A DNA stretch of 64,000 bases from an uncultured Holophagales bacterium (GCA_963842525.1 CAWJGT010000003.1:1184001-1248000); one strand, 5' to 3'. Positions 23,666 to 56,678 are shown, counted from the first letter of the stretch. Numbers and translations: made by a program. The notes: generated by a model not told the origin, from the letters alone.

Positions 23666-23819
23666 GACGGCTGCGGCCTCCCGGCGGGATCGGCAGGGCG
23701 CAGCGCCACGAGCCGTTTCAGGATGCCGTCCTGCGTCTCGTCGGTCATCGGGTCGGTTCCTTTCCGAAGGACCCGGCGATTCTAAACCAAAAATCGTAAG
23801 GGCTTGGAAGGTGATGTGC

Positions 23820-25174
23820 TCACCATGCGGGGGTGGTGCTGGTGGAGCTGGCGGGCGTCGTAGGGCTGGCGGGCGTCGTAGGGCTGGCGGGCGTCGTAGG
23901 GCTGGCGGGCGTCGTAGGGCTGGCAGGCGTCGAGGGTCTGGTGGGCGCGGGCGCCGGCGTGCTCGGCGCGGGGGGGACGGCGCAGGCATGGTCAGCCTCT
24001 GGCTCAGGTCGCCGCGGCGCGCTGTTTCGGCCTGCGTCTGCGCGGCGAGGCGCGCGCGGCGCTCTTCCGTGGCGATGCGCATCTCGGCTTCGGGGTTGAG
24101 GGTGTTGACGCGGATGCGGTCGACGGCGCCCTGGCCCGCGAGGCGTTCGAGGGGCAGATAATCGGTCTTGAACACCAGCTCCACGGAGGAGCTCAGGTCG
24201 AGGTCGGTGTTCATCTCTTCCGTGGTCTGGGTGCGCTGGGTGGATACATAGCCGATGGTGTTCTTGACCTTCACATCCATACCCCAGAAGCTGGCCTTGG
24301 CTTCTGCTTCGTTGCGCAGGTCGAAGCTGCTGCCCCGATCGTCGGCCGCGGCGCTGCGGGTGTCGATATGGAAGCGCATGGCGGCATGCAGACGGCCGCT
24401 CTCGATGACGATCCGCTGCAGGCCGAGCATGACCATGGTGGAGAGCATCTGTTGGCGGTTGCGCGCGAGCGCGCCGCGGGCCATCGGCACCAGGCTTTCC
24501 GGATCGCCGCCGGGCAGCGCATCCTGGGGCCCCAGGCCGAGCGCCGTGCGCAACGCCCCTTCGGCAGGCATGGAGGCGCCGGGGCGCAGGCGCAGCCGCG
24601 TCCCGGCATCGCGCTCCTCCTGCTCCTCCGGCGTCAGGGGCTGGCCGGGCTCGGCGAACGGATCGCTCTCTCCTTCGACCACGAAGGCGCCGGGAAAGCG
24701 TTCGGCGAGCCAGCCGCGCGCGCCGTTCACGCCGACGTTGGCATCGGCGAACCCCTCGGTGGAGGCCGCCACGTTGCGGATCAGCTCCACGTACGAGCTG
24801 AGCTGCTGCTGGTTGGTGTCCACCAGAGCCTTGAACACGCCGGTGATCAGCTCGGTGACGAAGCGTGGAAAGGAGACCGCGTTGAGGATCTCCCGCGTGG
24901 TGCCGGCCACACGCTGGGGCGCGACGCCGCTGAATTCGCTGCCGGCGCTCTGGGCGCGGGCGAGCGCCGGGCGTGGTGGTGCCGTGGCAGTGGCGGCGTC
25001 GGACTCGGCGGCGAGCGCCAGCGCGGCGGAGCCGATCCTGACCAATCCCTGGGCGAGCTCGCGGCGCGTCGACGGATCGAGGCCCTGGAAGCCCGTGCTG
25101 GCGGTGAGCAGATCACGGATCGCGCCGCGCACCTGGGCAGGCGGTTGCTCCGGCCGTTCCAGGACGCCGGCCAT
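23820..25174 (-). CDS. Unknown family A protein 4 (helical N-part, long beta-hairpin, Pro/Thr tail); frameshift in G-run near 23970
   Basis: VSFPRFVTELITGVFKALVD, RQQMLSTMVMLGLQRIVIESG, VELVFKTDYLPL shared with three paralogues; restoring G8 gives the tail PASPTT x4 ...TPAW* ending at 23820. Confidence 0.8.
23850..23925. repeat. 18-bp tandem repeat x4 (GGCGGGCGTCGTAGGGCT)
   Basis: Direct inspection; encodes PASPTT on the minus strand. Confidence 0.9.
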
Positions 25175-25178
25175 GGCG

Positions 25179-26114
25179 TCACCCGGCCAGGGCGGCCCAG
25201 GGGGATTCGCCGCGCGCCGGCGGCGGCGCAGGGGCTGCCGATTCGCCGAGAGCGAGCGAGGCCTCCAGCCAATCCACCGCCGCCGGGATTACAGGGTGAT
25301 TGAGGCTCACCAGCGGTTTGCCGCCCTGCTCCAGGAAGGGAGCGGCCTCGGCGAGCCAGGACAGGAGCGTCATGCCCGCCTGGCCGCGGCGCACGTGCAG
25401 CGCAGGATCCATGCGCGGCCGGCGCGCCAGGCGCGCGACCGCGGCCACCACGCCCCAGACGTCGCGCGCGCCGAAGGCGCTTTTCACGGCGCGGTGGGCG
25501 AGGATCGCCAGGGCCTGCTTGACGGCCGCCAGGACCTCCTGCGCCAGGAACACGGTGAGCCCGCTGCTGACGCGCACCAGGTTGGCCAGCAGCCGCTGGG
25601 CCGCGGCGCGCACCCGCGCCTGCTGCGCCACGCCGCCCCAATCCGAATTGCTGGCCTGCTCGTCGAGCTTGTAGAGGGCCTCGCACAGGTCGATCAGCCG
25701 GTCTTCGAATTCCCGGTTGGGCGGCTGCTCCGAGTGATCGATCCCACCCGGTGCGCCGAACAGCGCGGAGAAGAACCCGCGCCGCTCGGCTTCGTTCGCC
25801 CGCTCGTTGCGCTGCCGCCAGAGCTCCTGCAGGAGACGAGCCGCCTCGCCCAGGTCGACGGCAAGGCTGCCGCTGCGGGCGAGCCGCGTCAGCGCCTCCG
25901 CGGCGCCGAGCACGTCCGCATCCTCCAGCTCGGAGGCCAGATAGAGCGTGGCAATGGCGCGGAGCTGCGCCTGGTCCACGACCGCGCCGGCGGACGGCGG
26001 CAATTCGATGGCATCGATCTCGTCGAGGGCGAATGCAACGGTGTGCGCCTGGGCGACGAGCTGCTCGGCGCGCTGCAGGGCGATCTCGAGGGCGGGATCG
26101 AGGTCGCGGGTCAT
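25179..26114 (-). CDS. Unknown helical family B protein 2
   Basis: ATGA-coupled start MTRDLDP; EAERRGFF, PNREFEDRL, VRAAAQRLLANL, FGARDVWGVV match the C-half of 29749-31470. Confidence 0.8.
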   Translation of the reverse strand: MTRDLDPALEIALQRAEQLVAQAHTVAFALDEIDAIELPPSAGAVVDQAQLRAIATLYLASELEDADVLGAAEALTRLARSGSLAVDLGEAARLLQELWRQRNERANEAERRGFFSALFGAPGGIDHSEQPPNREFEDRLIDLCEALYKLDEQASNSDWGGVAQQARVRAAAQRLLANLVRVSSGLTVFLAQEVLAAVKQALAILAHRAVKSAFGARDVWGVVAAVARLARRPRMDPALHVRRGQAGMTLLSWLAEAAPFLEQGGKPLVSLNHPVIPAAVDWLEASLALGESAAPAPPPARGESPWAALAG

Positions 26115-27331
26115 GGCCGGCTTCCGGAGGCAGCGGCGGTGCCGCGGGCGTTGGGGTTGAACGGCGTGGAGTTGCCCTGGATCACGGACATCATCTCCGG
26201 CGTGGCCATCTTTTCGAGCGGCAGGTAGTCGCTCTTGAAGTTGACCCGCACCTCGCCCGAGAGCCTGGCCTTGACCTCGGCCTTGGACTCGCTGGTCTCG
26301 TCCACCGCGGAGCCGACGGTGGCCACGTGCTCCTGCTCGCCTTCGAAGCTGGCGGATGCGTCCCAGGGTGACATCCACCCGCCGTAGCTGACACTGACGC
26401 TCTGGCGGTAGCGTTGCGCCGAGCGGTCCTGCATCGACGCCGTGTAGCGCCGTTTCGCCTTGTCCTCAGCCCTCATGTCGAAAACCACCTTGGCGTTGAT
26501 GGTGCCGTCCGTGACGACGATGCGATTGATGCCGAGCATCACCATGGAAGAGAGGAGCTGTTGGCGCGATTTAGCCATCTGGAGCCGCGCCGCGGTCACG
26601 ATCTTGAGCTCGGCGTTGGGATCGGAGACGTCGGTCACCGGCGGCTCGACGCCCAGCTCCCGGCTGATCTCCTGCAGCCGCTGCTCCGGATCGTCGCCGC
26701 GGGCGACCAGTTGAGTCGTGGTCGGGGCCGCTTCGCCCTCTTCCGCCAGCCCTCCCGAGCCCGCGTTGACCTCGACTTCCAGCGTGTCCGGAAAACGCTC
26801 GGCGAGCCAGTCGCGCCCGGCTCCCACCGAGATGTTGTCGGCCATGAACTGATCGACGGTCTTGGCCACGTTGGCGATCAGCTCGCCATAGGCGCGCATC
26901 TGCTCGATGGACGACTCGACGATGGCTTGAAACACATTTTTGATCAAGCCGCCGACGAACTTGGGGAAGTCCACCTTCTGCACCAGCGCGCCGAACTGCT
27001 CGACGCCTTCGCGCACGGCGCCGGCCTTGAATTTCTCGCCTACCAAGCCGGGCGACTCCGAGAGGTTGCGCTTGGTGGCTTCCACCGGGTCTTCCTCGTC
27101 CGCCTGCGCGCGGGCCACGGGCGCCGGCGGCGGAGCCGCGGCCGGCTCGAGCACGCCGTTGGGATTCGCGATGTAGGAGAGAATCTTGACCATGTCCCGG
27201 GCGAGCTGCTGCTGCTCGGCCGCGCCGAGCCGCGAGAAGGCGGGGACCGAGGTGAGCAGCTCGCGCACCTGCGGCCGCACGGCCTCCAGGGCCTGCGGCG
27301 TCGTCCAGGGCGCATTGGCGGGCGCTGCCAT
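26111..27331 (-). CDS. Unknown family A protein 3
   Basis: VDFPKFVGGLIKNVFQAIVESSIEQM, RQQLLSSMVMLGINRIVVTDG, GEVRVNFKSDYLPLEKM. Confidence 0.85.
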   Translation of the reverse strand: MAAPANAPWTTPQALEAVRPQVRELLTSVPAFSRLGAAEQQQLARDMVKILSYIANPNGVLEPAAAPPPAPVARAQADEEDPVEATKRNLSESPGLVGEKFKAGAVREGVEQFGALVQKVDFPKFVGGLIKNVFQAIVESSIEQMRAYGELIANVAKTVDQFMADNISVGAGRDWLAERFPDTLEVEVNAGSGGLAEEGEAAPTTTQLVARGDDPEQRLQEISRELGVEPPVTDVSDPNAELKIVTAARLQMAKSRQQLLSSMVMLGINRIVVTDGTINAKVVFDMRAEDKAKRRYTASMQDRSAQRYRQSVSVSYGGWMSPWDASASFEGEQEHVATVGSAVDETSESKAEVKARLSGEVRVNFKSDYLPLEKMATPEMMSVIQGNSTPFNPNARGTAAASGSRP

Positions 27332-27351
27332 GATGTTTCACCTCCCTGCGG

Positions 27352-28650
27352 TCATTGGGCCGGCGTTCCCGGGGGGGCCGCCGGGGCGGCGCCGCCCGGC
27401 GCCTGCGGGGTGCGCGCCGAAGGCACCACGTTGGGATCGACCGGCTGCGAATGGCCCTGGATGGCGGCGATCATGCCGGGCGTCGCCATCTTTTCGAGCG
27501 GCAGGTAGTCGCTCTTGAAATTGACTTCCACGTTGCCGGCGAGCTGGGCGCGCGTCGTCAGCGTGGATTCGGAGGCTTCCGAAGCCGTGCTCATGGCGGT
27601 CATGATCGGTTTTTCGGCGTACTTGTACTTGCCCTTGGAGTAGTAGTCCGAATTCCATTCGGATTGGAGGCCCTTGTCCTTGTCCCACGAGCTCTTGCCA
27701 GTCCTCGTGCCGCCCCTGTCCCACTCTCCCTCGCGGTCCCGCGTCCGGGCGATCTGTCCGTCCTCGGTTGCATAGTCGTAGGCGGTGGCGCTGCGCGCGA
27801 GCTTGCGGGCGTCGCGGGCCTGGAAGTCGTACAGGATCTTGGCCTGGATCCGCCCGTCGGTGACCACGATGCGGTTGATGCCCATGAGCACCAGGCTTGC
27901 CAGGAGCTGCTGGCGCTGGCGCGCGAGCTGTGTGCGCGCGGCGGTGACCAGCGCGAGCTCCGCGGTCTCGTCCGACAGGTCCATGCTCTTCAATTGGCCG
28001 TCCTGGAAATCCAGCGCACCATTGACCCGGCGCAACGCGGCGCTGTCGTCCACACCGTCGCGCAGCCGCAGGCGCGGGCCGGGGCTGTCGGAAAAATCAT
28101 CCGTGCCGATCTCGAACAGGTCGGGGAATTTTTCCACCATGTGGTCGCGCCCCTGGTTGGGTGTGACATTGTCCTCGCGGAAGCTCTCCAGGGACTTGGC
28201 CACCTGCCCGACCATGTTGGAATAGGCCTCCATCTGCTCGATCGAGGACTTGACGATGGCATGGAAAACCCCTTCGATCAGGCCGGCGACGAAGGTCGGG
28301 AAGTTGACCTGCTTCAGGAACAGGTCGGCGACCGCGGCGCCTTCGCGCGCCGCGCCGGCCGCGAAATCCTTATTGCCGATATCCTCGACGGCCTCCCAGC
28401 CCTTCTCGGACGTAGCATCCACTTCGCCGGCGAGGGCGCGGGCGGGCGGCGCGCCGGCTCCGCCTGGCAAGGTGTTGCCGGGGATGCCTTCCGGCGCCGC
28501 CAGGTAGTCGGCGATCAGCGCCGTGTCGTGAGCGATCTGCTGCTGCTGGGCCGCGGGCAGGCTGGCAAACGCGGATGACCGGGTGAGCAGCGTCTTGACG
28601 GCCTGGCGGACCTCGGGTCGCGGCGTCGGCGCGGGAGCGGTGGCAGGCAT
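27352..28650 (-). CDS. Unknown family A protein 2
   Basis: VNFPTFVAGLIEGVFHAIVKSSIEQM, RQQLLASLVLMGINRIVVTDG, GNVEVNFKSDYLPLEKM. Confidence 0.85.
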   Translation of the reverse strand: MPATAPAPTPRPEVRQAVKTLLTRSSAFASLPAAQQQQIAHDTALIADYLAAPEGIPGNTLPGGAGAPPARALAGEVDATSEKGWEAVEDIGNKDFAAGAAREGAAVADLFLKQVNFPTFVAGLIEGVFHAIVKSSIEQMEAYSNMVGQVAKSLESFREDNVTPNQGRDHMVEKFPDLFEIGTDDFSDSPGPRLRLRDGVDDSAALRRVNGALDFQDGQLKSMDLSDETAELALVTAARTQLARQRQQLLASLVLMGINRIVVTDGRIQAKILYDFQARDARKLARSATAYDYATEDGQIARTRDREGEWDRGGTRTGKSSWDKDKGLQSEWNSDYYSKGKYKYAEKPIMTAMSTASEASESTLTTRAQLAGNVEVNFKSDYLPLEKMATPGMIAAIQGHSQPVDPNVVPSARTPQAPGGAAPAAPPGTPAQ

Positions 28651-28674
28651 GACGATCACCTCGCAGGAAGAAAA

Positions 28675-29721
28675 TCAGGCCGCAATGGGACGCCCTGAGG
28701 CGCGCTGCAGCGCCTGCGGCGGCACTTCGAATTCGACCGGGCGCAGGTAGAGGCCCACGCGCGGCGGCATTGTGGCGCTGGTGCGCACGCTGAGGATCGA
28801 GAAACGCCCCGGCCAGACGTCGTCCTCCGGCGTGAAGGCCGCCAGCCAGCGCTCCAGGGCCGTGAGCTCGCGCGGACGCTCGCTCAAGCCCAGCGTCAGC
28901 AGGGAGAGGAACTCGGCCGGCAGGTCGGGGATCATGCCCAGCAGCACGTAGATTTCGAGCTCGACCCCGTCGGGCGACCGGCCGACGCCGATCAGCGTGG
29001 CCTGGGCCGGCAGGTCGAAGCGTCCGCCGAGCGCGAGCCCGAGGATCTGCAGGAGGCCGGGCATGCGCTGGCCGAGCCCGAGCGCATCGAGCAGCGGCTG
29101 CAGATCGGCGAGGCGCAACGGCCGCGGATGGGCGAAGGTGAGCCGCTGGCCGCCCGCATCGCGTTGCGCCGCGAGGGTGGTGAACAGCGGCACCAGCCCG
29201 GGCATGACCGAAAGCGCCGTCGACGCGACGCCGAAGAGCCCCATGGGCAGCGCGTCGATCTGTCCGGGTCCGGTCTCGTAGTACACCTTCGACGAGAAGA
29301 GCCCGTCGCGGTCATGGCCGGTGCCGAAGAAGGCGCCGTAATGGAGGTTCGATCCGGAGCCGAAGCCGCGCCAGGGCTCGCTGCGCTCGTCGAACCAGTG
29401 CAGGGCTTCGCGTCCGAAGAAGCTGCCCACCAGCCGGCGCATCTCGCGCGTCGCTTCGTCGCGCCGGTCCAGGCCCGAGGCCTCGGGCCCCAGCGGTTGC
29501 AGGTTGAAACGCAACGTGCCGGGCTGCAGCTCCGAATAGGACGGCTCGATGGGCGCCGCGCCGGGCGTCAGGGCATTGTCCGCATAACGCGGGTCGCCCT
29601 CGGGGAGAGTGAAGGTGCGGTCGAGCAGCCCCCGCATCGTAGGTGTGGGATCGGCGGTGCCGAGCCGCTGGGCCGCATGGCTCAGAAGGTTCGCCACCCG
29701 TGAAGCCAGTGCCTTTGCCAT
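28675..29721 (-). CDS. Putative DMATS/ABBA-type aromatic prenyltransferase-like protein
   Basis: LTPGAAPIEPSYS...LRFNLQP resembles the DMATS DGxPxExS...RxxxEP motif; KVYY and VGLYLRP strands; 348 aa; fold assignment by eye only. Confidence 0.5.
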   Translation of the reverse strand: MAKALASRVANLLSHAAQRLGTADPTPTMRGLLDRTFTLPEGDPRYADNALTPGAAPIEPSYSELQPGTLRFNLQPLGPEASGLDRRDEATREMRRLVGSFFGREALHWFDERSEPWRGFGSGSNLHYGAFFGTGHDRDGLFSSKVYYETGPGQIDALPMGLFGVASTALSVMPGLVPLFTTLAAQRDAGGQRLTFAHPRPLRLADLQPLLDALGLGQRMPGLLQILGLALGGRFDLPAQATLIGVGRSPDGVELEIYVLLGMIPDLPAEFLSLLTLGLSERPRELTALERWLAAFTPEDDVWPGRFSILSVRTSATMPPRVGLYLRPVEFEVPPQALQRASGRPIAA

Positions 29722-29748
29722 GATGTTCCTCCGTGTCTCCTGTGGCGC

Positions 29749-31470
29749 TCAGTGGCGCGTCATGCCCATGCCCAGCCCGAGCCCGGGCAATCCCGCCTGC
29801 TCCAGCATGTCGCGGGCGATCGAGGGGATCTGTACCGGCCGGGAGGTCATCACCGGCGATTCGCGCGGCTGCGACAGCTCCTCGACGCGGTCGTCGGACG
29901 TTGCGGTGTCGGCGAGCCACAGCTCGCAGGCGTTGACCAGGTCGTAGTCGGTGGGCTTGGTGGTGGCCTTCGGGCCGGCCGTCGACGGATACGCCGACAG
30001 CACCTCGTCGAGGTCGACGATGCGCGAGCTGGCCGGCCGGTTGAAGCGCTCCACGTTGTTGCCCAGCCAGGCGGTGATGATGGCGCCGCACGTCGCCAGC
30101 GTCCGGTAGCGTGCGCTGTTGCGGGCGCCGCCCAGCTCCAGCGTCGCCACTTGGTCGATCACCTGCCACATGTCGCGCGCCCCGTACGCGCCCATGACCT
30201 CCGGGTCGCCGAGGAGGTTGATCATCATTTGAATCTGGTCGCGCAGCTCGCGCGCGGCGAAGAAGGCCATCCCATACCCGTGCGACGACAGGTTGAGCGC
30301 GAGGTCGCGGGCCGCCTTGCGCACCTGCTGCTGGCTCAACGCGCCCGGCACGCGGTCGCGTACGTAATGATCGACCGTGCCCTGGCGCACCAGCTTGGAG
30401 ACCGAGGAGACGAAGCGGATCCACAGGTCGTTGAACTCCCGGTTCGTATTGCCGTTGCCGTCGCCGCCCGGGATTCCCAAGGTCAGCGCGTAGAAGTTGC
30501 GCCGCTCGGCCTCGGAGATCCGGTTCGGCGTGCTCTTCCAATAGTCATAGAGCATCCTGCCGGCCTTGCCGCTGCCGATGGGGAGCATGCCGTTTTGCGA
30601 CAGCTCGACCAGCTTTTCCACCACGGAGAAGGCTTTCAGCTCGTCGAACATCGCCGCGCAGATGATCGGCCCCATCAGCTTCACATTCTCGGACTGAATT
30701 TGATAATCGGTCGCATCGTTGAGGTCCGGCAACGAGATCCCGATGTCGGTGAACGGTTTTTCGACGCCTTCTCCCTGGATGGCGTCCAGGCATTCGTTGA
30801 CGCGCCGCTTGAGCTGCGGCTCGTCGGCCGTGATGCCCTTGCTGCGCAGACAACGGACGACCTGCGCGAGCTCGGCGGTGTCGACCACTCCAGCCACTTT
30901 GTCATCGTCGCTCTTGTCGCCCACGTCTTCGAGGATGGAAAGGACCAGCTTCGCCAGCTCGAAGCCGTCCTGTGTCTCGCCGAAGGCCGCATAGAAAGCT
31001 CTACTGAACCGGCCGTGCTCAGGGTCCGTCTTGTCTGCCACGATTTCAGGATCACCTGACTTGGGGGTAGGCTGCACGGTCAGGCGCGGGAGCCGAGCCC
31101 GATCGATCGCCAGCAGGCCGAGGACCAGCGAGACGGTGACGACGTCCTCGAACTCCAGGGCAGCCTTGGGAGCAGCCTTGGGGATGGCCTGCAGCTTTCC
31201 CTGGTCATGATTCACCAGGGTCTTGTCGGGAAGGACGCCGCTCAGGTTGAGGTAGTCGCGAGCGGCGACGTACAGCGGGTCGGCCACCTCGAGCTTCGGG
31301 GCCACGGCCAGGCGTTTGAGGAGCTTTTCGATCCGTTCGAGGTTCTCGTTCTCTTCCTTCGTCAGCGGCACCTTCTTTTTGAGGCGGTCCCTGTCGATCC
31401 GCAGAGTTTCTCGCTCCTCTTCGTCGCGCGCTACGAGGTCATGGAAAACGATGTCGGTCACGGCGGCCAT
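29749..31470 (-). CDS. Unknown helical family B protein 1 (573 aa, N-terminal extension)
   Basis: Long ORF with RBS; EAERRNFY, NREFNDLW, VRKAARDLALNL, YGARDMWQVI motifs. Confidence 0.85.
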   Translation of the reverse strand: MAAVTDIVFHDLVARDEEERETLRIDRDRLKKKVPLTKEENENLERIEKLLKRLAVAPKLEVADPLYVAARDYLNLSGVLPDKTLVNHDQGKLQAIPKAAPKAALEFEDVVTVSLVLGLLAIDRARLPRLTVQPTPKSGDPEIVADKTDPEHGRFSRAFYAAFGETQDGFELAKLVLSILEDVGDKSDDDKVAGVVDTAELAQVVRCLRSKGITADEPQLKRRVNECLDAIQGEGVEKPFTDIGISLPDLNDATDYQIQSENVKLMGPIICAAMFDELKAFSVVEKLVELSQNGMLPIGSGKAGRMLYDYWKSTPNRISEAERRNFYALTLGIPGGDGNGNTNREFNDLWIRFVSSVSKLVRQGTVDHYVRDRVPGALSQQQVRKAARDLALNLSSHGYGMAFFAARELRDQIQMMINLLGDPEVMGAYGARDMWQVIDQVATLELGGARNSARYRTLATCGAIITAWLGNNVERFNRPASSRIVDLDEVLSAYPSTAGPKATTKPTDYDLVNACELWLADTATSDDRVEELSQPRESPVMTSRPVQIPSIARDMLEQAGLPGLGLGMGMTRH

Positions 31471-31499
31471 TTTGCATCTCCTTGCTTTCAGGGTTCAGT

Positions 31500-32933
31500 T
31501 CATTCCTCGTCGACAGAGTACGCGTCCTCCGGGAGGGAGCTGTCGATGAAGGCGTCCAACGCCTGCAGCGCCGCATGGGAATCGAGCACTCCCGCGCCGC
31601 ACCCCGCGGGCGCCGGAGCCGGAAAGGGAGCGGCCGATTCCATCAGCAGGCTGCGCAGGCAAGCGCCGTCGACCGGCGTCGCGCGGCGCCGGGCGCGGGA
31701 GACCATCAGCGCCGCCGTGGCGGCCACGAAGGGTGCGGCGAAGCTGGTGCCGGTGGCAAGTTGGTACTCCGTGAGCGCGAGGGTGCGGACGCGCTCGCCC
31801 GGCGCGCACAGGGCCACATGCCCGCCGCGGGTGGAAAACGTGCTGGGTATGCCGCGCTCGCCGGCCGAGCCCACGGCGATCACGCCCGGATAGGCGGCCG
31901 GCCAGTAGCGCGTCTCCTTGCCGTTGTTGCCGCTCGCGGCCACCAGGATGCAGCCGTGATCGAGGGCGTACTCCACGACGTCCCGGTGCGGCTTCGGGCT
32001 TCCCGGCTCGAGGCTCGCGTCGTCCGTGCCGAAGCTCATGTTGATGACCTTGGCGCCCAGGTCCACTGCCATTTTCATGGCCATGTCAAGGTCGCTGATG
32101 GCGCCGATGCCGACGGCGTTCGTCTTGCCGGGGAAGCGCGCCGCGCCGAGCCCGCGCAACGGCAGGATGCAGGCCTCGCCGGCCAGGCCGGGCGGCATCG
32201 CCACGCCGAGCGCGCCGATGATGCCGGCGCAGCCCATGCCATGGCCGACGAAACGGTCCACCGGGCTCGCATCCGCCCGCGACGAGTCGCCCAGGAGCTC
32301 GAGCCCGAGCGCCACGTCCGAGCGGCCGAGCTGCACGGTGTCGTAGCCGGCGCGCAGCCGCCCCGCCAGCTCGGGATGGTCCGGCGCCACACCGCTGTCC
32401 ACCACCGCAACGATCACCGCGGGATCGCCCTGCTCGTAGGCGAGCGCCTCCGCCGCGTGCACCTGCTGCCAGGGCGCCCATTCCAGCTCGTTCTCGGCGC
32501 CGGCCGACAGCTCGAAGGGGGTGACGCAGCAATAGTTGGGCGAAGCGGCCTCCACGATGGCGACCTGGCTGAGCGAGTCCACCAGCGGCTCGATCGCGGT
32601 GCCCGCGGGCACGTCGATGCGGAAGGTGCGGGCGAGGCCGAAGATCTGCTCGCGGTCGTCGAAGCCCTGATGCCGCTCGCCGGGCCGGCCGAGGCTCGCG
32701 GCTGCCGCGTGCACCCGCGCCACCCGCAGGCCGCCGGCGAAGTGGCGCACGATGCGGTCCACCACGCCGCCGTCCAGCTTTTCTCTGGCGGGCAGGTACC
32801 CGGGGCGCACGTCCAGGGCCGTCGGGATCGCTTCGGGAGCCTCGCCCAGCGCGAGCTTCAGCACCACGCTGCCCGGCAGGCAGTAGGCGCGTCCGTGGGT
32901 GGCCCAGGGCATGGCGAGCGCGCTGGATTTCAT
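31500..32933 (-). CDS. S8 subtilisin-like serine peptidase, no signal peptide
   Basis: Triad VAVVDSG / GHGMGCAG / TGTSFAAP; oxyanion AASGN; ATGA coupling. Confidence 0.93.
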   Translation of the reverse strand: MKSSALAMPWATHGRAYCLPGSVVLKLALGEAPEAIPTALDVRPGYLPAREKLDGGVVDRIVRHFAGGLRVARVHAAAASLGRPGERHQGFDDREQIFGLARTFRIDVPAGTAIEPLVDSLSQVAIVEAASPNYCCVTPFELSAGAENELEWAPWQQVHAAEALAYEQGDPAVIVAVVDSGVAPDHPELAGRLRAGYDTVQLGRSDVALGLELLGDSSRADASPVDRFVGHGMGCAGIIGALGVAMPPGLAGEACILPLRGLGAARFPGKTNAVGIGAISDLDMAMKMAVDLGAKVINMSFGTDDASLEPGSPKPHRDVVEYALDHGCILVAASGNNGKETRYWPAAYPGVIAVGSAGERGIPSTFSTRGGHVALCAPGERVRTLALTEYQLATGTSFAAPFVAATAALMVSRARRRATPVDGACLRSLLMESAAPFPAPAPAGCGAGVLDSHAALQALDAFIDSSLPEDAYSVDEE

Positions 32934-33737
32934 AACGCACCTCCTGGGTCGCCCGACCCTCTGGTGCCATTGCCGCCGTTGCCGCCGCGCCAGAAAGGGC
33001 GCAGATCGAAGGCCATGGCGGCGGCCCGCTGCGGTGCGGGCTCGACGACGAGCTCGCCGGCCATCTGGTGCGCCAGCGGCGCGATCACCAGCTCGCGCTC
33101 GTCGGCGCGCACCACGCTCACGGGCTCTCCTCCCACCGTGACGCGCGGCAGGCCCTCCTTCATCAGGTTCCGGCCGCGGATGCGCACCAGGTTGGGCAGG
33201 CCCGCGGCCTCCTCGTGCGACGGCGGCACCGGCAGCACGTGCTCCACCAGCGGCGCCGAGGCGCGCTCCAGGGCGTTGCGCAGGCGGTCCACCGGCAGGT
33301 TGGTGACGCGCCCCACGGTGCGCGAATCCCCCCGCTCTTCGATCTCGCGCAGCTTCGACACGGTGCGCACGCCCACCCATTCGAGCCGGCGCCGCTCGTC
33401 CTCTGAGAGGTCGTCCTTGAGCTCGTCGATCGATCTCTCCTGGGGGTCTTCCGAGAAGGCGATGGCGTTCTCCTCGATCATCGGCCGCGTGATGGCGGCG
33501 AATTCGAGATGGAAGACGCTCGCTTCCTTGTCGCTGGCGCTCGCCGGCCGGATGCGGATCTCCGAGCGGGCAAACTCCACGTGGGCGCGCAGGTCGAGCT
33601 TGATGTCACGGATGGCGAAAGTGAGCGGAAGGTCGAGGTTGCGCGCCTTGACCGCCATCGCCGTCTGGGCGTTGTCGAGCTGGCTCTGCACCGCCTGGAT
33701 GAAGTGCTCCAGAGGCAGGGTGGAGTCAGAAGCTCAC
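32930..33737 (-). CDS. Trypco/Pepco-like N-domain + helix-hairpin + IPT/TIG domain protein (start uncertain)
   Basis: LEHFIQAVQSQLDNAQ...LTFAIRDIKLDLRAHV; LSEDERRRLEWVGVRTVSKL; VRIRGRNL..PRVTVGG; open frame begins directly after the TGA of the upstream gene. Confidence 0.65.
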
Positions 33738-33982
33738 GAGGCCTCCCTTTTCGCCCAGACGACGTGCAGGCGAGCCGGCGGCGTGTCGAAGACGGTGCGG
33801 GTGATGGTGCGCGGCACGTCGCCGAGCAGCTCGATCTCGTCCCCCGCGCGATGCCACGCGACCTCGATGGGAAGGTCGACCTCAATGGCCTGCACCAGGA
33901 GGCCCGGCGCCGCGGCCAGGGCGTCCAACGTGCCCGCGGCCACCTCGGCGAGCATGTTGGCGAGGGTGCGGCGAGCGGTCAT
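33734..33982 (-). CDS. Small unknown protein (82 aa) of the operon
   Basis: ATGA-coupled; MTARRTLANMLAEVAAG...IEVDLPIEV...DVPRTITRTVFD. Confidence 0.7.
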   Translation of the reverse strand: MTARRTLANMLAEVAAGTLDALAAAPGLLVQAIEVDLPIEVAWHRAGDEIELLGDVPRTITRTVFDTPPARLHVVWAKREAS

Positions 33983-35043
33983 CGCGTGCCTCCGGCGGGC
34001 GGTGCGGCAGGTGCCGGCGGGGTGGCAGGCGCCGTTTCGGGTGCTGCCGGCGGTGCTGCCGGTCGTGGTGCGGTGATACTGGCCGCGGCCCGCGCGTGCC
34101 GTTCCAGCAGGGTGCGCTTGGCTTCGTCGACGAAGCGGTCGAGGGGGACCGTCTCGCTGGCGAAGTTGATCTTCACCTCGCCGAAGAGCTCGGCCTTGAG
34201 CTCGCTGTCGGTCTGTGCGTTGACGCCCACCGTGGACACCTTGGTGGAGGGCAGCGAAAACGTGCGGCTGCCGCGCCGGCCCCACTCGCTGCCGCTACCG
34301 CCCGGATCGTCCGACACCGCATAGTCCACCTTGGCGTGGTCGGCCGCCGCGGCGCGAAAGCGCAGCCGTGCGCCGATGCTGCCGTCCTTCACCACGACGC
34401 GGTGCATGCCGAGCAGGACCATGGTCGACAGGGTCTGCAGCCGGTTGCGCGCCACGCGCTCGCGTGCCCGCGGCACGAGCTGCTCTTCGACGAGCTCGGG
34501 CGTCAGCTCCTCGCCGGCGAGCCCGAAGTCGGCCAGCCATTCGGGCGGCGGGGGAGCTTCTTCGTCTTCGGCGGCCTGCTTGCGAGGCAGGACGCGCGGG
34601 GACTCCGCGTCCCGCAGCAGGACGAGGTCGTGCGGATATTGCTCCACCAGCCAATCGCGAGCCTGGTTGAGCGAAACGTTTTCCTGGGTAAACTGATCGA
34701 TCGGCTTGGCGACCGCCGCCACGAGGTCGGCAAAGCTTTCCATCTGGCGGATGGCGGAATCGACGATCGCGTCGAAAGTACCGTGCACCAGCGAGGCGAC
34801 GAACTCGGGAAAATCCAATTCATCAGACAGCGCCCCCGCGCGCCGGCCGATCGTCTCGGTCGCCGCCTCCCGCTTGGAGCCCGAACCGTTCCCGTCAAAG
34901 GTTGGCTCCGGTGAGGCCGGCTCGGGCTCGTCGATCTCCCGCCCGAAGGCATCGCGCGCCAGCGACTGCGCAACAGGCGCCGCCTCGGCCCGGCGCACGG
35001 CCGGCGGCGGCGGAGGCAGTCTCTTGTCGTTCCCGTGGGCCAC
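33979..35043 (-). CDS. Unknown family A protein 1 (lacks helical leader)
   Basis: LDFPEFVASLVHGTFDAIVDSAIRQM, LSTMVLLGMHRVVVKDG, GEVKINFASETVPL. Confidence 0.85.
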   Translation of the reverse strand: MAHGNDKRLPPPPPAVRRAEAAPVAQSLARDAFGREIDEPEPASPEPTFDGNGSGSKREAATETIGRRAGALSDELDFPEFVASLVHGTFDAIVDSAIRQMESFADLVAAVAKPIDQFTQENVSLNQARDWLVEQYPHDLVLLRDAESPRVLPRKQAAEDEEAPPPPEWLADFGLAGEELTPELVEEQLVPRARERVARNRLQTLSTMVLLGMHRVVVKDGSIGARLRFRAAAADHAKVDYAVSDDPGGSGSEWGRRGSRTFSLPSTKVSTVGVNAQTDSELKAELFGEVKINFASETVPLDRFVDEAKRTLLERHARAAASITAPRPAAPPAAPETAPATPPAPAAPPAGGTR

Positions 35044-35064
35044 GTTCGGCTCCGTTCCTTCGGA

Positions 35065-38000
35065 TCAGTGAACCAACGCCGTCTGCCACCTGCTGCGGCG
35101 CTCGAGCTGTCCATCACCGTAAAGGGTCAATTCGGTAATTCCCAACGGCGTAGAGCCGTCCGGCGCCGTGAAGCGGTACTCGATCTGCACCTTCAGCGTC
35201 GAGATCCCCGCACCGTTCGTGCCCGGCGGCACGGGCTCGTCCAGGATGCGGGCGTGCACGTCGAGCGTGACGCTGTTGGCATTGCGAGCCTCGCCCGCGG
35301 CGATGCGGATGTTGCCGACGCCGCCCGATTCGAACTCCCAATCGACCGTCAGCGGCAGGCTGGCGGGACCGTCGCTTCCTTCCACATAGGGCCAGTCGCT
35401 CAGCCGCACCGTTGGCGTAATGCAGGACGCTGCGCCCGGCGCCACTCCCGGCGGCCGTTTGAAGCCGCGCAACTGGTCGAGCTGCCAGCGGATGTTGCCG
35501 GCCGCTCCCTCCACGCGCTCGATCGCAGCGCCTGGGAACAGGGGAGGTACGATGGCGCCGGTCGCCTCGTCGAGAGCGACGGCGCGGCGTATCTGCTGGT
35601 GGAGAGGCGCCCCGTTGCTCGGCGCCGGCGCGGCCTGCGCGAGCGCCAGCGACTGAGCGGCGGTTGCCTGCACGGCTTCGAAGACCTGGATCGGCAACAC
35701 GCCGAGCCCCACGCCCAGGCCGAAGGTGACGCCCTGGAAGCGCCACGAGGTATCGAACAACGCCTGGGCGCTGACCGAAACGCCCAGATCCACTTCCACC
35801 CCGGTCGCCCAACTGATGCCGGAGAAGCTCTCGATGCCGCCGGAGACAATGGTGAACTGGAGCTCCACCGACGCGCTTGCGAGGATGAGGCCGGTGCGAA
35901 TGTCGAACTGGCCGTAGAAGCCGATCTCGTCGTCGGGCGCGAAGATGATGCCCGCGCCCCCTCCGCCGCCGACCAGGATGAAGCCGACGTTCGCCGTCGG
36001 GCCGATGGCGATGCTCACGTTGTAGCGGTTCGCCGCCGCGCGCACCATCGCGACCAGCGCCGACGCGGGGAACAGCGCGGCGAGCGCTACCTCCCTTTCC
36101 CACCACGACGCCTCGTCCGTCGGCGGAAAGCGAGCCGGACGGCGCTCGGTCCCCAGGGCGCGCACTACGCCCCGGCCTTGTGGCAGTGTCGGCGCGGCGC
36201 TCGCGGCGCTGGCCAGCGGCGCCGAAGGACCGAGAAATGCCTGGAGGTCCTCGGCAGGCACCCCCTGAGAGAGCAGGCGGGTTACGAGCTCCACTAGGCT
36301 GGGGCCGATCTCGCCGGCCCGGGCGATGACCTGCTCGGCGCTCGCCGCGCTGAAGGCGCGAGCGCTCTGGACCACCTGCACCGCGGGGAGGCTGGCCGCC
36401 ATAGCATAACCGCGTGGCGTGGTCTGACGGTTGGGCGTGTAGCGACGGGCGTACGGGATACCATTCTCATCGCTGCCGGCGTGCGAAATCTGCACATTCA
36501 CCGCCCCTGTGGGCGAAACGGTCACGCGGTCCTCGTACTCGCGCACGAAGCTCTCCCACGTCAGGATGTAGCGGCTGCCCCTATTGTGGGTTCCCAGATT
36601 GGGACCGAGCGTACCGATCGTAGGAGCCGGACCAAAATCCCAGGGATCGGCGATGCGCACAAAGGTGTCGGAGCCGTCCGGCGCGCCGTCGCTGTACATG
36701 CCGGTGACGACGATGGCATGGCCGTTACCGGATCGCGCTATGCCGATCCACAGCGGGCCGCACGTTTCCAGCAGATTGCGAAAGGCGTCGAGGGAGTAGG
36801 ACTGGGGCTCTTCATACGCGAGCCCGATATCGATTGCAAACTGCTGCCGCTCGCTGGCATAGAAATTGGTTGTGGTGGTACGACCCTGGCTCACGGCAAC
36901 GTATTCGGGCGTCACCGTTCGATGATCCCGCCAGCCCAGAACCATGGCCGCCGCGGTAGCCCAGCAGGAATTGCCGGTCGGCTGGTTAATGAGATTCACA
37001 TCCCAGTTGATCGAGAAGGACTCGTTTGCCAGCGGACGCGCGACGCTGCGGCTGGCTGCCATGGCATAACCGGCTGGTGCGGTCTGACGGTTTGGCACAT
37101 GGCTGCCGATGCCGCCCGCGTGCAGGATCTGCACATTCACCGCGCCCGTGGGCGAAACGCTGGAGCGGTTCTGGTACTCGCGCACGAAAGTGTCCCATGT
37201 CAGGATGTAGCGGCTACCCGTGTTGTGTGTCCTAAGATTGGGGCCGAGGGTGCCAACCGGAGCCGGACCGAAGTCCCAGGGATCGGTGATGCGGACGTAA
37301 GTGTCGGAACCGTCAGGCGCGCCGTCGCTGTACATGCCGGTGACGACGACGACATGGCCGCCGCGGCCTCGCTGTACGCTCACCCAGAGCGGCCCGCACC
37401 TTTCGAGCATGTCGCGAAAGCCCTCGATGCTATAGGACTTGGGCGCCTCGTAGATGAGCCCGACCTCCTCGGCGAACAGCCTCCGATCGTCGCGATCCAG
37501 CCCATTCTGCAGTGTGCGGCCGGCTACTTGACCAATGTATTGGGGGTCGACCGACGCATCGTCTCGCCAACCGAGCACCATCGCTGCGGCGGTGGCCCAG
37601 CAAGACATATCGGTCGGCTGGTTGATGGGCTGCACGCCGTCCCAGTTGATCGAGAAAGACTCATTCGCCAGCGCCATGGGCGCCGGCGTGCTCGCGGAAA
37701 CTGGCGGCGGAGGAGGCGCCAGCGGACCGAAGCCGTCGTCGTAAGCCGGCGCGGCGGCCGGCGCGTGGCCATTACCGCCGGGGGCCGCGGGCGCCGGTCT
37801 CATGGCGCCTGCCGCAGGCTCCTGACCGGGAGCAGCGGCGTCGCCGGCCCACTCCAGCGCGCTCTTGCCATCGGCACCGTAGCCTGCCGCGCGCTGCTGG
37901 CGGCTCGGCACCACCCTCACCCGTTTGAGGCTCCGTCCGGTCAAACCCTGGAGCGAGATGTACGGGCTTCCCTCGCTCGGCATCACCGCCACCTGCGGCG

Positions 38001-38319
38001 CCGTGCCGTTGCGCTCCGGCATGGTGGCGAGGCCGAAATAGAGGCGGCCCTGGCCGATGAAGCGTGCCAGCACCTCGGGCGGTACGACATAGATCGCCTC
38101 GCCGCGCGGCACCAGCAGCGGCCCGCCGGCGCGGCTGGAATAGAAGTTGCCGCCGGTGCGCTCCGCCTTCTTGTCAGGGCGGAACAAGGAAGGGTCCGTC
38201 GCGACCGCCACCTCGGCGCGCTGGGGCGATCCGTCCGTACGGATCGTGAAACCGAGCATCGGAAACCGGTCGCTGACCTCGAGCCGGTTGGGACGAATCT
38301 GAGCGGCCATGACCATCAC
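35065..38319 (-). CDS. 1084-aa modular protein with two papain-like (AvrRpt2/C39-like) cysteine protease domains
   Basis: Twice: QPT.xSCWA, GPLW, GH(V/A)(V/I)VVTGM, DPW (Cys-His-Asp intact); separate N- and C-terminal domains and a Gly-rich beta module. Confidence 0.85.
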   Translation of the reverse strand: MMVMAAQIRPNRLEVSDRFPMLGFTIRTDGSPQRAEVAVATDPSLFRPDKKAERTGGNFYSSRAGGPLLVPRGEAIYVVPPEVLARFIGQGRLYFGLATMPERNGTAPQVAVMPSEGSPYISLQGLTGRSLKRVRVVPSRQQRAAGYGADGKSALEWAGDAAAPGQEPAAGAMRPAPAAPGGNGHAPAAAPAYDDGFGPLAPPPPPVSASTPAPMALANESFSINWDGVQPINQPTDMSCWATAAAMVLGWRDDASVDPQYIGQVAGRTLQNGLDRDDRRLFAEEVGLIYEAPKSYSIEGFRDMLERCGPLWVSVQRGRGGHVVVVTGMYSDGAPDGSDTYVRITDPWDFGPAPVGTLGPNLRTHNTGSRYILTWDTFVREYQNRSSVSPTGAVNVQILHAGGIGSHVPNRQTAPAGYAMAASRSVARPLANESFSINWDVNLINQPTGNSCWATAAAMVLGWRDHRTVTPEYVAVSQGRTTTTNFYASERQQFAIDIGLAYEEPQSYSLDAFRNLLETCGPLWIGIARSGNGHAIVVTGMYSDGAPDGSDTFVRIADPWDFGPAPTIGTLGPNLGTHNRGSRYILTWESFVREYEDRVTVSPTGAVNVQISHAGSDENGIPYARRYTPNRQTTPRGYAMAASLPAVQVVQSARAFSAASAEQVIARAGEIGPSLVELVTRLLSQGVPAEDLQAFLGPSAPLASAASAAPTLPQGRGVVRALGTERRPARFPPTDEASWWEREVALAALFPASALVAMVRAAANRYNVSIAIGPTANVGFILVGGGGGAGIIFAPDDEIGFYGQFDIRTGLILASASVELQFTIVSGGIESFSGISWATGVEVDLGVSVSAQALFDTSWRFQGVTFGLGVGLGVLPIQVFEAVQATAAQSLALAQAAPAPSNGAPLHQQIRRAVALDEATGAIVPPLFPGAAIERVEGAAGNIRWQLDQLRGFKRPPGVAPGAASCITPTVRLSDWPYVEGSDGPASLPLTVDWEFESGGVGNIRIAAGEARNANSVTLDVHARILDEPVPPGTNGAGISTLKVQIEYRFTAPDGSTPLGITELTLYGDGQLERRSRWQTALVH
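36391..37665 (-). repeat. Intragenic tandem duplication of the ~640-bp protease module
   Basis: Both units run from LANESFSINWD to GYAMAAS. Confidence 0.88.
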
Positions 38320-38696
38320 CTCTTCCGGGTTGAGAGTTGGACGGGCACCATGGAAAGATCGCTCGCGTCATCGCGGCGGACGTCCACGGCCCGGCGTTCG
38401 AAATCGGGCAGCGAGCGCAGGACCGTCGCGAGCGGATCCGGCGCGTCCGCGACGTCAGTGATCAGTCCGTTGTCGGTCTCGTACTGGCCTACCGCGTTGT
38501 GCAGCATCGTGGCGAACAGCTTGGCGTGGGTCGGCCCCATCGCAATGCGGGTGTGCAGCATGACGTTCGACACCTCCGGCTGGAGCTGGCCGAAATCGAT
38601 CAGGAATTCGTAGGGGTTGTGCCCCACCTCGAAATAGTTGGTATAGCGGGCCAGCGGCGCGCGCGCGGAGCGGGTGGATGGACGTTTGATCGGCAT
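38316..38696 (-). CDS. DUF3467-like protein, first gene of the sigma-54 operon
   Basis: YTNYFEVGHNPYEFLIDFGQ...RIAMGPTHAKLF...YE...G pattern. Confidence 0.75.
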   Translation of the reverse strand: MPIKRPSTRSARAPLARYTNYFEVGHNPYEFLIDFGQLQPEVSNVMLHTRIAMGPTHAKLFATMLHNAVGQYETDNGLITDVADAPDPLATVLRSLPDFERRAVDVRRDDASDLSMVPVQLSTRKR

Positions 38697-38727
38697 GCTC
38701 GGCTCGTGTCCTCGCCGCCTCCAGAGG

Positions 38728-38744
38728 GGCAAGCCGCATGCCAG
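38728..38744 (-). promoter_or_regulatory. Sigma-54 -24/-12 promoter
   Basis: Minus strand CTGGCATGCGGCTTGC: GG-N10-GC matching TGGCAC-N5-TTGC, ~32 bp upstream of the ATG. Confidence 0.85.
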
Positions 38745-38759
38745 CCGGGCGGCCGACGC

Positions 38760-38867
38760 CAACCGCTTGTTGCAATTGAGTTTCCGGCGCGCGGGGCGGC
38801 ACGCGGCGTCACGCGGCGTCACGCGAAGGTGTCGCACAGGGACGAGCAGAGGGTTACAGGTGTGACA
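38760..38867. promoter_or_regulatory. Putative IHF site and upstream activator sequences
   Basis: Minus CAACAAGCGGTTG with adjacent AT tract (2 mismatches to WATCAAN4TTR); repeated YGTCRCRC at ~38807, 38817, 38830 and inverted at 38860. Confidence 0.5.
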
Positions 38868-39797
38868 CTACGCCGACCGATCGATATGGTATTTCGCCAG
38901 CTTGCGGTAGAGGGTCATCCGCGACCAGTTCAAGCTCTTGGCCGCCTCCGCCTTGTTCCATTTCGTCTGTTCGAGCGCTCCCAGGAGCTGGTCCCGTTCA
39001 CTCGGCGCGCTGGCCCGATAGCGCAGGAACATGTTTTGGAATACCGGCGGCAGGTCGGCAAGGCCGATGCCTCCGCTGGGCGGATCGATGAAGATCGCTT
39101 CCACCAGGTTGCGCAGCTCGCGCACGTTGCCCGGCCAATCATGGGCCAGCAGGCAGCGGATCAGCTCGCCGTCGGGTGCGCCGACCGCGCGGCGGTCGCG
39201 GAGGTTCAATTCCTCGGTGGCATGGCGGAACAGCAGCGGGATGTCTTCCGGGCGTTCTTTCAGCGCCGGCAGATCCAGCCGCGCCACGTTGAGCCGGTAA
39301 AAGAGGTCGGTCCGAAAGCCACCGCTCTGCATCAGGGATTCGAGCGGCAGGTTGGTGGCGGCGATCACGCGCAGGTCCACGGCAACGGTCCGTCCCGCGC
39401 CCACCGGCGTGACCTCGTGGGTCTCCAGCACGCGCAGCAGCTTCGGCTGGGCGTGCAGTCTCATCTCGCCGATCTCGTCGAGGAAGAGCGTTCCGCCGTC
39501 CGCCTGGACCACATGCCCCTTGCAGGCGCTCACCGCTCCTGTGAACGCGCCGCGTTCATGGCCGAAGAGCTCCGACTCGATCAGGCTGTCCGGCAACGCC
39601 GCGCAGTTGACGGCGACGAATGGGCGGCGGGCGCGCGGGCCCAATGCATGGAGCGTCCGCGCGACCCGTTCCTTACCCGTCCCGGTGGCACCCGTGATCA
39701 GAACGGTCGCCGGCGAGCGGGCGACCTTCGGCAGATAGGCCCGCAGCGCGGCCATTGCCGGACTGATTCCCACGACCATCTCCACAAGATCGGCCAT
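38868..39797 (-). CDS. Sigma-54 enhancer-binding protein (AAA+ and Fis HTH) without N-terminal sensor domain
   Basis: GATGTGKE, ESELFGHERGAFTGA, LFLDEIG, FRTDLFYRL, WPGNVREL, SRMTLYRKL; only 309 aa. Confidence 0.95.
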   Translation of the reverse strand: MADLVEMVVGISPAMAALRAYLPKVARSPATVLITGATGTGKERVARTLHALGPRARRPFVAVNCAALPDSLIESELFGHERGAFTGAVSACKGHVVQADGGTLFLDEIGEMRLHAQPKLLRVLETHEVTPVGAGRTVAVDLRVIAATNLPLESLMQSGGFRTDLFYRLNVARLDLPALKERPEDIPLLFRHATEELNLRDRRAVGAPDGELIRCLLAHDWPGNVRELRNLVEAIFIDPPSGGIGLADLPPVFQNMFLRYRASAPSERDQLLGALEQTKWNKAEAAKSLNWSRMTLYRKLAKYHIDRSA

Positions 39798-56476: not shown

Positions 56477-56678
56477 AGACCATTCTCCTGTTGAGGTATG
56501 GCACGATCCGATCGTGGCCGGGGTGCGGCAGGCCCGAGAGGCGCTTTTTGCCGCCGCAAACTACGACATTCACGAATTTTGCCGGCGTCTCTCAGACAGG
56601 CAATCGACCTCCGGCCATGCTGTCGTGAAGCGTGGCAGCACTTCCATTGAAAACTCTTTGGGGGAGACGCTCGGCTAA
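56469..56678 (+). CDS. Small putative antitoxin
   Basis: HDPIVAGVRQAREALFAAANYD; overlaps toxin end; its stop lies within the attC core. Confidence 0.7.
   Translation: MAKDHSPVEVWHDPIVAGVRQAREALFAAANYDIHEFCRRLSDRQSTSGHAVVKRGSTSIENSLGETLG

Follow-up and report, generated by a model that had tools for sequence, protein, structure and literature searches.

An Ala-rich linker motif shared by five proteins of a subtilase-encoding bacterial cassette as a candidate processing site

Five proteins encoded in one gene cassette of an uncultured Holophagales bacterium carry versions of the same short Ala-rich peptide, raising the question of whether this peptide is a recognition site and, if so, for which enzyme. 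The cassette comprises 13 genes, to only part of which Pfam gives names, and lies within a 64,000-nucleotide stretch of DNA (GCA_963842525.1 CAWJGT010000003.1:1184001-1248000), which was analyzed as a whole and is termed the window; positions are counted from its first nucleotide, and all cassette genes and sites given below are on its minus strand. Four of the five proteins are paralogues of one another (famA1 to famA4, together family A), the fifth is a modular protein of 1,084 amino acids (aa), and the cassette also encodes a subtilase of peptidase family S8. The original prediction, made from the window sequence, was that this subtilase removes pro-peptides from family A and cuts the large protein into modules at the shared motif. 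Our analyses demonstrated that the motif is genuine, keeps its position in homologues and is common to the five cassette proteins. That it is a shared processing site cut by the co-encoded S8 subtilase is the reading favoured here, with a probability of roughly 0.55.

The motif in the family A proteins

All ten strings quoted in the original prediction were present in the proteins to which they had been assigned, with DNA coordinates matching to within ~20 bases. The motif is found in all four family A N termini, as PALARAQS at residue 69 of famA1, PVARAQA at residue 71 of famA2, PPARALAG at residue 71 of famA3 and PVAQSLAR at residue 23 of famA4. Numbering residues outwards from the presumed cut (arrow, following P1), the corresponding sites are LARAQ↓S with P1 Gln75 in famA1 (24947..24964), VARAQ↓A with P1 Gln76 in famA2 (27101..27118), PARAL↓A with P1 Leu76 in famA3 (28429..28446) and VAQSL↓A with P1 Leu28 in famA4 (34957..34974). 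The pattern itself required revision: taken literally, A.A[LQF][ASG] fits only four of the ten strings, whereas a profile derived from homologues fits nine, the sole exception being PMAL↓A of the large protein with Pro at P4. The proposed pattern was too narrow at some positions (Met is common at P1, and Gly, Ser, Thr or Pro are allowed at P2) and too permissive at others. The refined motif is [L/V/P/T]-A-x-[A/G/S]-[L/Q/M(/F)], followed by Ala, Asn, Asp or Ser.

Ala-rich motifs had been expected to arise easily, and this proved to be the case. In the open frames of the host genome, the frequency per 1,000 aa was 0.73 for the strict pattern and 0.93 for the refined core, corresponding to ~1% of 11-residue windows (7,337 frames of at least 400 aa in all six frames, spurious ones included), and shuffling of individual family A proteins gave 0.28 to 0.41 strict matches per protein. 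A single occurrence of the motif therefore means little at this background frequency, and it is the position of the motif in homologues that decides.

Homologous cassettes were collected by searching for the 573-aa cassette protein in one genome per species, giving 60 loci. The fixed position on which the original prediction had staked the motif was observed in the homologues of all four paralogues across these loci. The clearest view came from 38 orthologues of famA2, in which the linker that follows the N-terminal domain is between a few and ~50 residues long, hypervariable and unalignable, and in which P-L-A-R-A-Q returns in register after this variable stretch. The orthologue consensus reads L-A-R-A-Q↓N-A-G-S-E-F-S-G for famA1 and P-A-M-A-L↓A-R-D-A-F-G-R-E for famA4. 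The latter protein has ~24 residues ahead of the motif and is without the N-terminal helical domain; a multiple alignment that set its PVAQSLAR against the N-terminal helix of the other paralogues was rejected, as the famA4 orthologues exposed this placement as an error and have the motif at the same distance from the core as in the paralogues.

Automatic location of the motif yielded 228 family A sites from the 60 loci and the window. P4 was Ala in 182 and Ser in 27. Small residues occupied P2 in 223 sites (Ala 173, Gly 25, Thr 16 and Ser 9), and P1 was Leu, Met or Gln in 225 (Leu 121, Met 57 and Gln 47, with Phe in 2 and His in 1); P1' was mainly Ala, Asn, Asp or Ser. The simple core was present in 56/59 famA1, 56/59 famA2, 53/61 famA3 and 38/49 famA4 sites. 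For famA1 to famA3, the information content was 3.6 to 3.7 bits at P4, 3.1 to 3.4 at P2 and 2.9 to 3.1 at P1, as against 1.6 to 1.8 bits at P3 and 0.8 to 2.0 in the ten preceding linker residues. A Met-rich pattern at P1 was restricted to one 14-row clade of a quick tree and, being a single clade event, the co-variation of P1 among sites was not counted as independent evidence.

The four paralogues share 31 to 34% identity with each other and are the only family A copies in the host genome, while relatives elsewhere are numerous: famA2 has more than 2,400, none of them functionally named, and a profile built from all four paralogues reached 2,209 representative clusters. In order to look beyond close orthologues, 150 representatives at ≤50% identity were sampled, of which 11 had no anchor and 6 no N-terminal region. 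The core was found in 84 of the 133 testable sequences (63%), compared to 11.4% of shuffled regions.

A structural model of famA2 was built from 131 sequences of all four paralogue groups (predicted local distance difference test score [pLDDT], 78) and replaced an earlier, poor model from 38 close orthologues (pLDDT, 50.8). It has a confident three-helix N-terminal domain (residues 12 to 55), a disordered linker (62 to 81), a helical core (82 to 266) and a long beta-hairpin (269 to 369) with two strands of ~45 residues each. Residues 65 to 79 are modelled as coil with pLDDT of <50, are the sole long low-confidence segment of the N-terminal half and contain the motif. The claim that each site ends a disordered linker ahead of a folded domain was thus borne out for famA2, in which the model places residues 65 to 79 between the N-terminal domain and the core. 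The hairpin is model based, and its alternating-polarity pattern is visible in a crude plot. In Foldseek searches, only the hairpin aligned, with template modelling scores of 0.1 to 0.3, to pore stems and ring collars, including those of anthrax protective antigen, binary-toxin B components, lysenin, aerolysin, FliF and phage tail parts. VIA-align, which is independent of Foldseek, returned nothing at Z ≥5 for the family A model.

The family A genes are located at 23870..25174 (famA1), 26111..27331 (famA2, 406 aa), 27352..28659 (famA3, 435 aa) and 33979..35043 (famA4, 354 aa). The 3' end of famA1 is uncertain. Its open frame (23168-25174, minus strand) continues without a stop through a tandem repeat at 23847-23947, with an 18-base unit in 5.6 copies that reads PALRRP, into a MaoC/RipB-like enoyl-CoA hydratase gene, and such a hydratase follows famA1 in none of the 60 related loci. 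The run-through may be due to a frameshift, or the true end may be hidden in another frame.

The joints of the large modular protein

The 1,084-aa protein (35065..38319), the candidate polyprotein substrate, consists of an N-terminal domain, a Pro/Ala linker, two Peptidase_C70 modules, small helical and Gly-rich beta modules and a C-terminal domain. Peptidase_C70 is the AvrRpt2-type papain-like family; the match covers two stretches with 189.7 bits against a cut-off of 19, and both repeats contain the catalytic Cys-Trp and Gly-His motifs, as SCW and GH. In 14 orthologues scanned with Pfam, the N-terminal domain was conserved and the middle variable, the latter being made up of Amidase_2 (one to three copies), Peptidase_C70 (none to three), Peptidase_C92, Trypsin_2 and DUF3238. 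The large protein is, hence, made of separable enzyme modules that differ between loci in both number and kind, and such interchange between loci would be expected of units that act separately.

Six of the ten strings are in this protein: PMALANESF at residue 214, VARPLANESF at 426, SARAFS at 652, VVRALG at 718, AQSLALA at 888 and RAVALD at 912. Two of the resulting sites, APMAL↓A (P1 Leu217; 37666..37683) and VARPL↓A (P1 Leu430; 37027..37044), are each located nine residues ahead of the NWD Trp of C70 modules 1 and 2, respectively. The residues NESF(S)INWD are simply the start of the C70 module, since P1 sits at a fixed 8 to 9 residues from this Trp at the C70 joints. SARAF↓S (P1 Phe656; 36349..36366) follows C70 module 2 and was read in the window protein. 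VVRAL↓G (P1 Leu722; 36151..36168) is upstream of the Gly-rich beta module, and AQSL↓A with LALAQ↓A (P1 Leu891 and Gln895; 35632..35658) is downstream of it. Among the large proteins, this module has a match upstream in 6/7 cases and downstream in 6/7, regardless of its place in the protein, and this flanking pattern accounts for the VVRALG and AQSLALA sites. The last site, RAVAL↓D (P1 Leu916; 35569..35586), precedes the C-terminal domain and has similar counterparts, by eye, in loci L058 and L031.

Five large proteins were read by eye and had the motif ahead of each module. In that of locus L055, all five joints read carry it (NARSL↓E, VARAQ↓S, SSHAL↓E, PARAQ↓Q and TARAQ↓T). A systematic scan was performed with a matrix derived from the family A sites only, taking the best match within 22 residues upstream of each module start. 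A score of at least 6.7 was obtained ahead of 20/54 C70, 15/28 Amidase_2 and 5/11 C92 starts and in 6.1% of random 22-residue windows; for a score of at least 4, the figures were 38/54, 21/28, 9/11 and 13.3%. The motif was, therefore, 5- to 9-fold more frequent ahead of C70, Amidase_2 and C92 modules than in random windows. When the C-terminal 480 residues of the large proteins were aligned, the differences in architecture made the result unreadable.

Other short elements were seen in these proteins. Y-D-D-G-F-G-P follows the N-terminal domain (~37723-37743, minus strand) in the six proteins read, namely the window protein and those of L011, L031, L055, L056 (as Y-D-D-G-F-D) and L058. D-x-D/E-x-M/R-G-I-E-G-P is found between two motif sites ahead of Amidase_2 modules. 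The C70 modules end in P-x-G-Y-A-M/Q/L and then Ala (AGYAM↓AAS here; ~36440-36470 and ~37050-37080, minus strand). The matrix scores these ends too, and they may represent a second cut freeing a short spacer.

The S8 subtilase and its rivals

The S8 subtilase gene is located at 31500..32933 and encodes 477 aa from MKSSALAMPW; its open frame extends over 31500-33380, with the likely start at 32933. Membership of the family is secure (PF00082, Peptidase_S8; 129.7 bits against a cut-off of 21.8), and Asp179, His231 and Ser397 together with the oxyanion Asn336 are invariant in 49/49 aligned sequences. The gene is present in 57/57 loci that reach its position, the other three ending at contig edges, and its product is the only protease encoded in every locus that does so. 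Assignment as a type VII secretion mycosin was rejected, as TIGR03921 gave 149.6 bits, below its equivalog cut-off of 278.75.

In a subtilase cleft, the substrate strand is expected to be conserved at P4, P2 and P1 and free at P3, and the pro-peptide junction of subtilisin reads Ala-x-Ala-aromatic followed by Ala. The cassette motif exhibits this pattern, with P4, P2 and P1 conserved and P3 free. The S8 subtilase itself has an N-terminal pro-region of ~140 aa that ends SPNY..VTPF↓E, or ..IGL↓D or ..VPM↓D in other clades. By analogy, this end may be the enzyme's own junction, with the same kind of P1 residue as the motif. Of the original proposal that the S8 peptidase removes pro-peptides and dices the large protein, the shared motif, the modular nature of the protein and the ubiquity of an intact S8 stood up to analysis, and cleavage by S8 is put forward as a prediction. 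We infer from these sequence patterns that the motif is cut, that S8 is the cutter and what role the products play.

The sequence of events would be as follows. A cytoplasmic S8 would first free itself from its own pro-region and would then cut after Leu, Gln or Met in the exposed linker of all four family A proteins, with loss of an N-terminal piece of ~70 residues (helical domain plus linker) from famA1 to famA3 and of ~28 residues from famA4. The same enzyme would cut the same motif at every joint of the large protein and so free the enzyme modules, which are papain-like C70 here and include peptidoglycan amidases, C92 and trypsin-like modules in relatives. By analogy with known pore formers, removal of the N-terminal piece may license the family A cores, with their hairpin strands of ~45 residues, to assemble into a large beta-barrel-like structure.

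Several observations weigh against this scheme. The S8 pro-region gave no match to Pfam Inhibitor_I9, and P4 at the presumed junction of S8 itself is Val, Thr or Met, unlike the Ala of the motif. The site picker sometimes took a look-alike in the N-terminal helix (I-A-D-Y-L-A or L-A-Q-A-M-V), so that the site counts are slightly contaminated and several of the core misses are such picks; the initial motif search had drifted to the famA1 N-terminal helix and was rerun with narrower windows, with some wrong picks remaining. The orthologues share descent, so the site counts are of nonindependent events. Ordinary helices also match the family A matrix, examples being A-E-A-L-A-Y in S8 and sites in a ~305-aa cassette protein, and a matrix match alone is, therefore, not specific, nor is the density of matches per protein decisive. 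Only 20/54 C70 starts passed the stricter score of 6.7, because P4 at these joints is often Val, Ser, Leu or Gly. Finally, other candidate cutters exist in the form of the C70 and trypsin-like modules and of housekeeping enzymes.

The last of these points amounts to a rival explanation, in which the motif is cut by another enzyme, either a C70 or trypsin-like module of the large protein or a housekeeping protease. The modules do include proteases (C70 here, trypsin-like in relatives), and the motif stands at its fixed distance of 8 to 9 residues before each C70 module. AvrRpt2-type proteases process themselves N terminally, and the preference of papain-like enzymes for a hydrophobic P2 would be satisfied by Leu or Met if the cut fell one residue later. 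C70 is absent, however, from 8/14 large proteins (L002, L005, L006, L017, L032, L048, L049 and L055) in a nonrandom sample, 8 of the 14 scanned orthologues having been chosen since a simple pattern found no C70, and Trypsin_2 is present in only 3/14 (L011, L055 and L056). All of these loci nevertheless retain the family A motifs; the modules vary among loci and the motif is constant. As the motif is kept in many loci from which C70 and trypsin-like modules are absent, the module proteases are not the general processing enzyme, and we regard cutting by any enzyme other than S8 as improbable. Cleavage by signal peptidase I at an Ala-x-Ala site was also rejected: there is no hydrophobic N-terminal segment, the 19-residue hydrophobicity maxima of family A being 1.05 to 1.49 with the best windows in the core rather than the N terminus.

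The motif could alternatively be an uncut docking or recognition peptide for a cassette chaperone or for loading during assembly. Conservation by itself fits binding as well as cutting, at least six cassette proteins without a known function could serve as receptors, and the same linkers hold other short conserved peptides, YDDGFGP and D..MGIEGP, that are unlike cut sites. It is, on the other hand, hard to see why each module of one chain should have its own tag unless the modules separate, and the conservation of P4, P2 and P1 around a free P3, with P1 limited to Leu, Met, Gln or Phe, is typical of protease subsites; furthermore, a conserved subtilase with an intact active site is always present. 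Docking is, thus, a possible explanation but clearly a less probable one than cutting by S8. By far the least credible, and disfavoured, is the view that the motif has no recognition role and is a by-product of Ala-rich high-GC linkers or of the following fold. It draws on the commonness of Ala-rich tetrapeptides in the genome (0.73 to 0.93 per 1,000 aa, as above) and on the matching of ordinary helices by the matrix, but has to contend with a conserved island inside a hypervariable linker, with observed and shuffled frequencies of 63% and 11.4%, with the presence of the motif ahead of unrelated folds (family A core, C70, Amidase_2, C92 and Gly-rich module), with its location in a segment modelled as disordered and with its retention in a distant, Lys-rich family A protein of the minimal cassette in locus L062, described below.

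Known systems, distribution and layout of the cassette

Among known systems, the logic of the cassette most resembles, by analogy, that of SUB1, the malaria subtilase of egress. SUB1 cuts many substrates, including papain-like SERA, at sites of the form I/L/V/T-x-G/A-polar followed by an acidic or hydroxyl residue, as in KITAQ↓DDEES (PMC3378952). In Plasmodium, as is proposed for the cassette, one subtilase serves several substrates (SERA and MSP1/6/7) through a short shared motif, with an aliphatic P4, Gly or Ala at P2, frequent Gln at P1 and an acidic or hydroxyl prime side (compare VARAQ↓ADEED here), and some of these substrates have a central papain-like domain that cuts on either side set free (PMC3378952). 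SUB1 differs in being a eukaryotic enzyme that is secreted into a vacuole and disfavours Leu at P1, the commonest P1 residue here. Cleavage by SUB1 has been demonstrated, whereas that by the cassette S8 is predicted, and orthology is not claimed.

Two further groups provide partial parallels. In the beta-barrel pore formers (anthrax protective antigen, binary toxin B components and aerolysin), removal of a pro-piece, as in activation by furin, allows oligomerization, and the phage prohead proteases (T4 gp21 and HK97) cut a short motif shared by many structural and internal proteins. The cassette is unlike these systems in that the family A match is to the hairpin only, there is no sequence relationship and there are no capsid or tail genes. 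For Csp, the subtilase of clostridial spores, we know of no shared motif across several structural proteins. Csp autoprocesses and then removes the inhibitory N-terminal pro-peptide of pro-SleC, a peptidoglycan hydrolase of the cortex (PMC11300598), and it differs from the cassette S8 in having a single substrate and a spore-specific setting. No description of the cassette was found in the literature, the nearest paper being that on the S8-associated polymorphic toxin systems (S8-PTS) of Gram-positive bacteria (PMC9424270). In these systems, a subtilase is likewise tied genomically to a protein with interchangeable enzyme or toxin domains and a predicted cleavage motif by the variable part; S8-PTS differ in that their three components bear signal peptides, the motif is dibasic, the toxin domain is single and C terminal and an immunity gene is present. 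The cassette, by comparison, comprises 13 genes, with four hairpin paralogues and no recognized immunity gene; a crude scan gave no hydrophobic N terminus, the motif is Ala-x-Ala-Leu/Gln/Met, and there are several central modules.

If the motif is indeed an S8 site, it would provide an experimental handle on a widespread cassette not described in the literature, with a defined peptide substrate and predictable mature N termini for four structural proteins and for the released modules. It would also constitute a bacterial case of one subtilase activating both structural proteins and a polyprotein of cell-wall enzymes via a single motif. The motif can be used as a marker delimiting modules in the highly variable large proteins. 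A more extensive reading, offered tentatively, is that the cassette is a self-contained, sigma-54-switched maturation cascade, spreading horizontally across at least five phyla. One cytoplasmic subtilase reading a single motif would strip the four hairpin paralogues of their pro-pieces, whereupon these might build a giant mixed beta-barrel conduit, and would dice the polyprotein into cell-wall hydrolases and proteases that might leave by this conduit, resulting in programmed lysis or providing a new export route. If true, such a cascade would be without a described equivalent in bacteria and would parallel the egress driven by SUB1 or the maturation of phage proheads.

The 60 public loci belong to at least five phyla and carry the cassette in the same gene order as far as the contigs reach, the exceptions being a few over-long open frames mislabelled by a crude caller. 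Hosts include Burkholderia, Massilia, Dyella, many sphingomonads, Erythrobacter, Desulfobulbus, Cellulomonas, Amycolatopsis, a Phycisphaeraceae genome and a Cytophagia genome. Five genomes of the window's own genus yielded no copy of the cassette. In a quick tree, the window copy was sister to that of Desulfobulbus, and the actinobacterial copies were nested among the sphingomonad ones. The patchy distribution and these placements indicate horizontal movement of the cassette.

A distant minimal cassette was detected in a relative of the window's organism (locus L062; genome G010, contig 3, 1171000-1190999), with genes for S8, a 573-like protein and one family A protein, followed by genes for four unknown proteins of 300 to 710 aa. 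The family A protein has 22 to 26% identity, is Lys rich and carries G-L-A-R-P-F↓A-T-D at the homologous place, ~40 residues before the DFPKFV block. In another relative (L061), family A has neither the N-terminal region nor the motif, and S8 is absent within 10 kb. The co-occurrence of motif and S8 in the former and their joint absence in the latter, at one case each, are suggestive.

The remaining cassette genes are described in order along the minus strand. Gene 1 (38868..39797) encodes a sigma-54 enhancer-binding protein (Pfam Sigma54_activat, 215 bits, and HTH_8), consisting of an AAA+ domain and a Fis-type helix-turn-helix without a sensor domain, and precedes the cassette in those related loci that extend far enough. 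The next gene (38316..38837) encodes a DUF3467 protein (49 bits), conserved in position among related loci, whose open frame is probably over-extended at the 5' end. A sigma-54-type -24/-12 element, TGGCAT-N5-TTGC, was observed at 38728-38743 (minus strand), between the gene for the enhancer-binding protein and the likely true DUF3467 start. A strict element is present at the same place in 17/42 related loci, and loose matches to the sigma-54 pattern were rarer than expected by chance over the whole window. The cassette appears to be under sigma-54 control.

Between famA4 and S8 are two conserved genes with no assigned function, encoding proteins of ~82 aa (33734..33982; relatives in 45/60 loci) and 253 aa (32930..33691; relatives in 54/60 loci), neither of which has a Pfam match; the stop codon of the latter overlaps the S8 start codon (ATGA). 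Proteins without a family are encoded downstream of S8, namely, the 573-aa protein (29749..31470), which adjoins S8 both here and in L062, a 348-aa protein (28675..29721) at a conserved position and, between famA2 and famA1, the ~305-aa protein (25179..26096, start taken at MTRDLDP). For these three, nothing was found in Pfam, NCBIfam, PADLOC or PHROGs, and for family A nothing in the last three of these. Sequence searches against solved structures gave chance-level rows or none, with no solved relative for a profile of the 348-aa protein, and a protein atlas returned no named cluster apart from DUF2589 at 0.78, which we treat as no more than a lead. A crude scan detected no strongly hydrophobic segment or membrane helix in the cassette proteins.

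Directly downstream of the cassette (19810-23095, minus strand) are genes for a CHAT-domain protease and a large TPR protein, which probably belong to a separate system because the genes conserved across the 60 loci do not include them. Elsewhere in the window, positions 56001-60000 have a G+C content of 0.53 to 0.55, compared to 0.63 to 0.72 in the rest.

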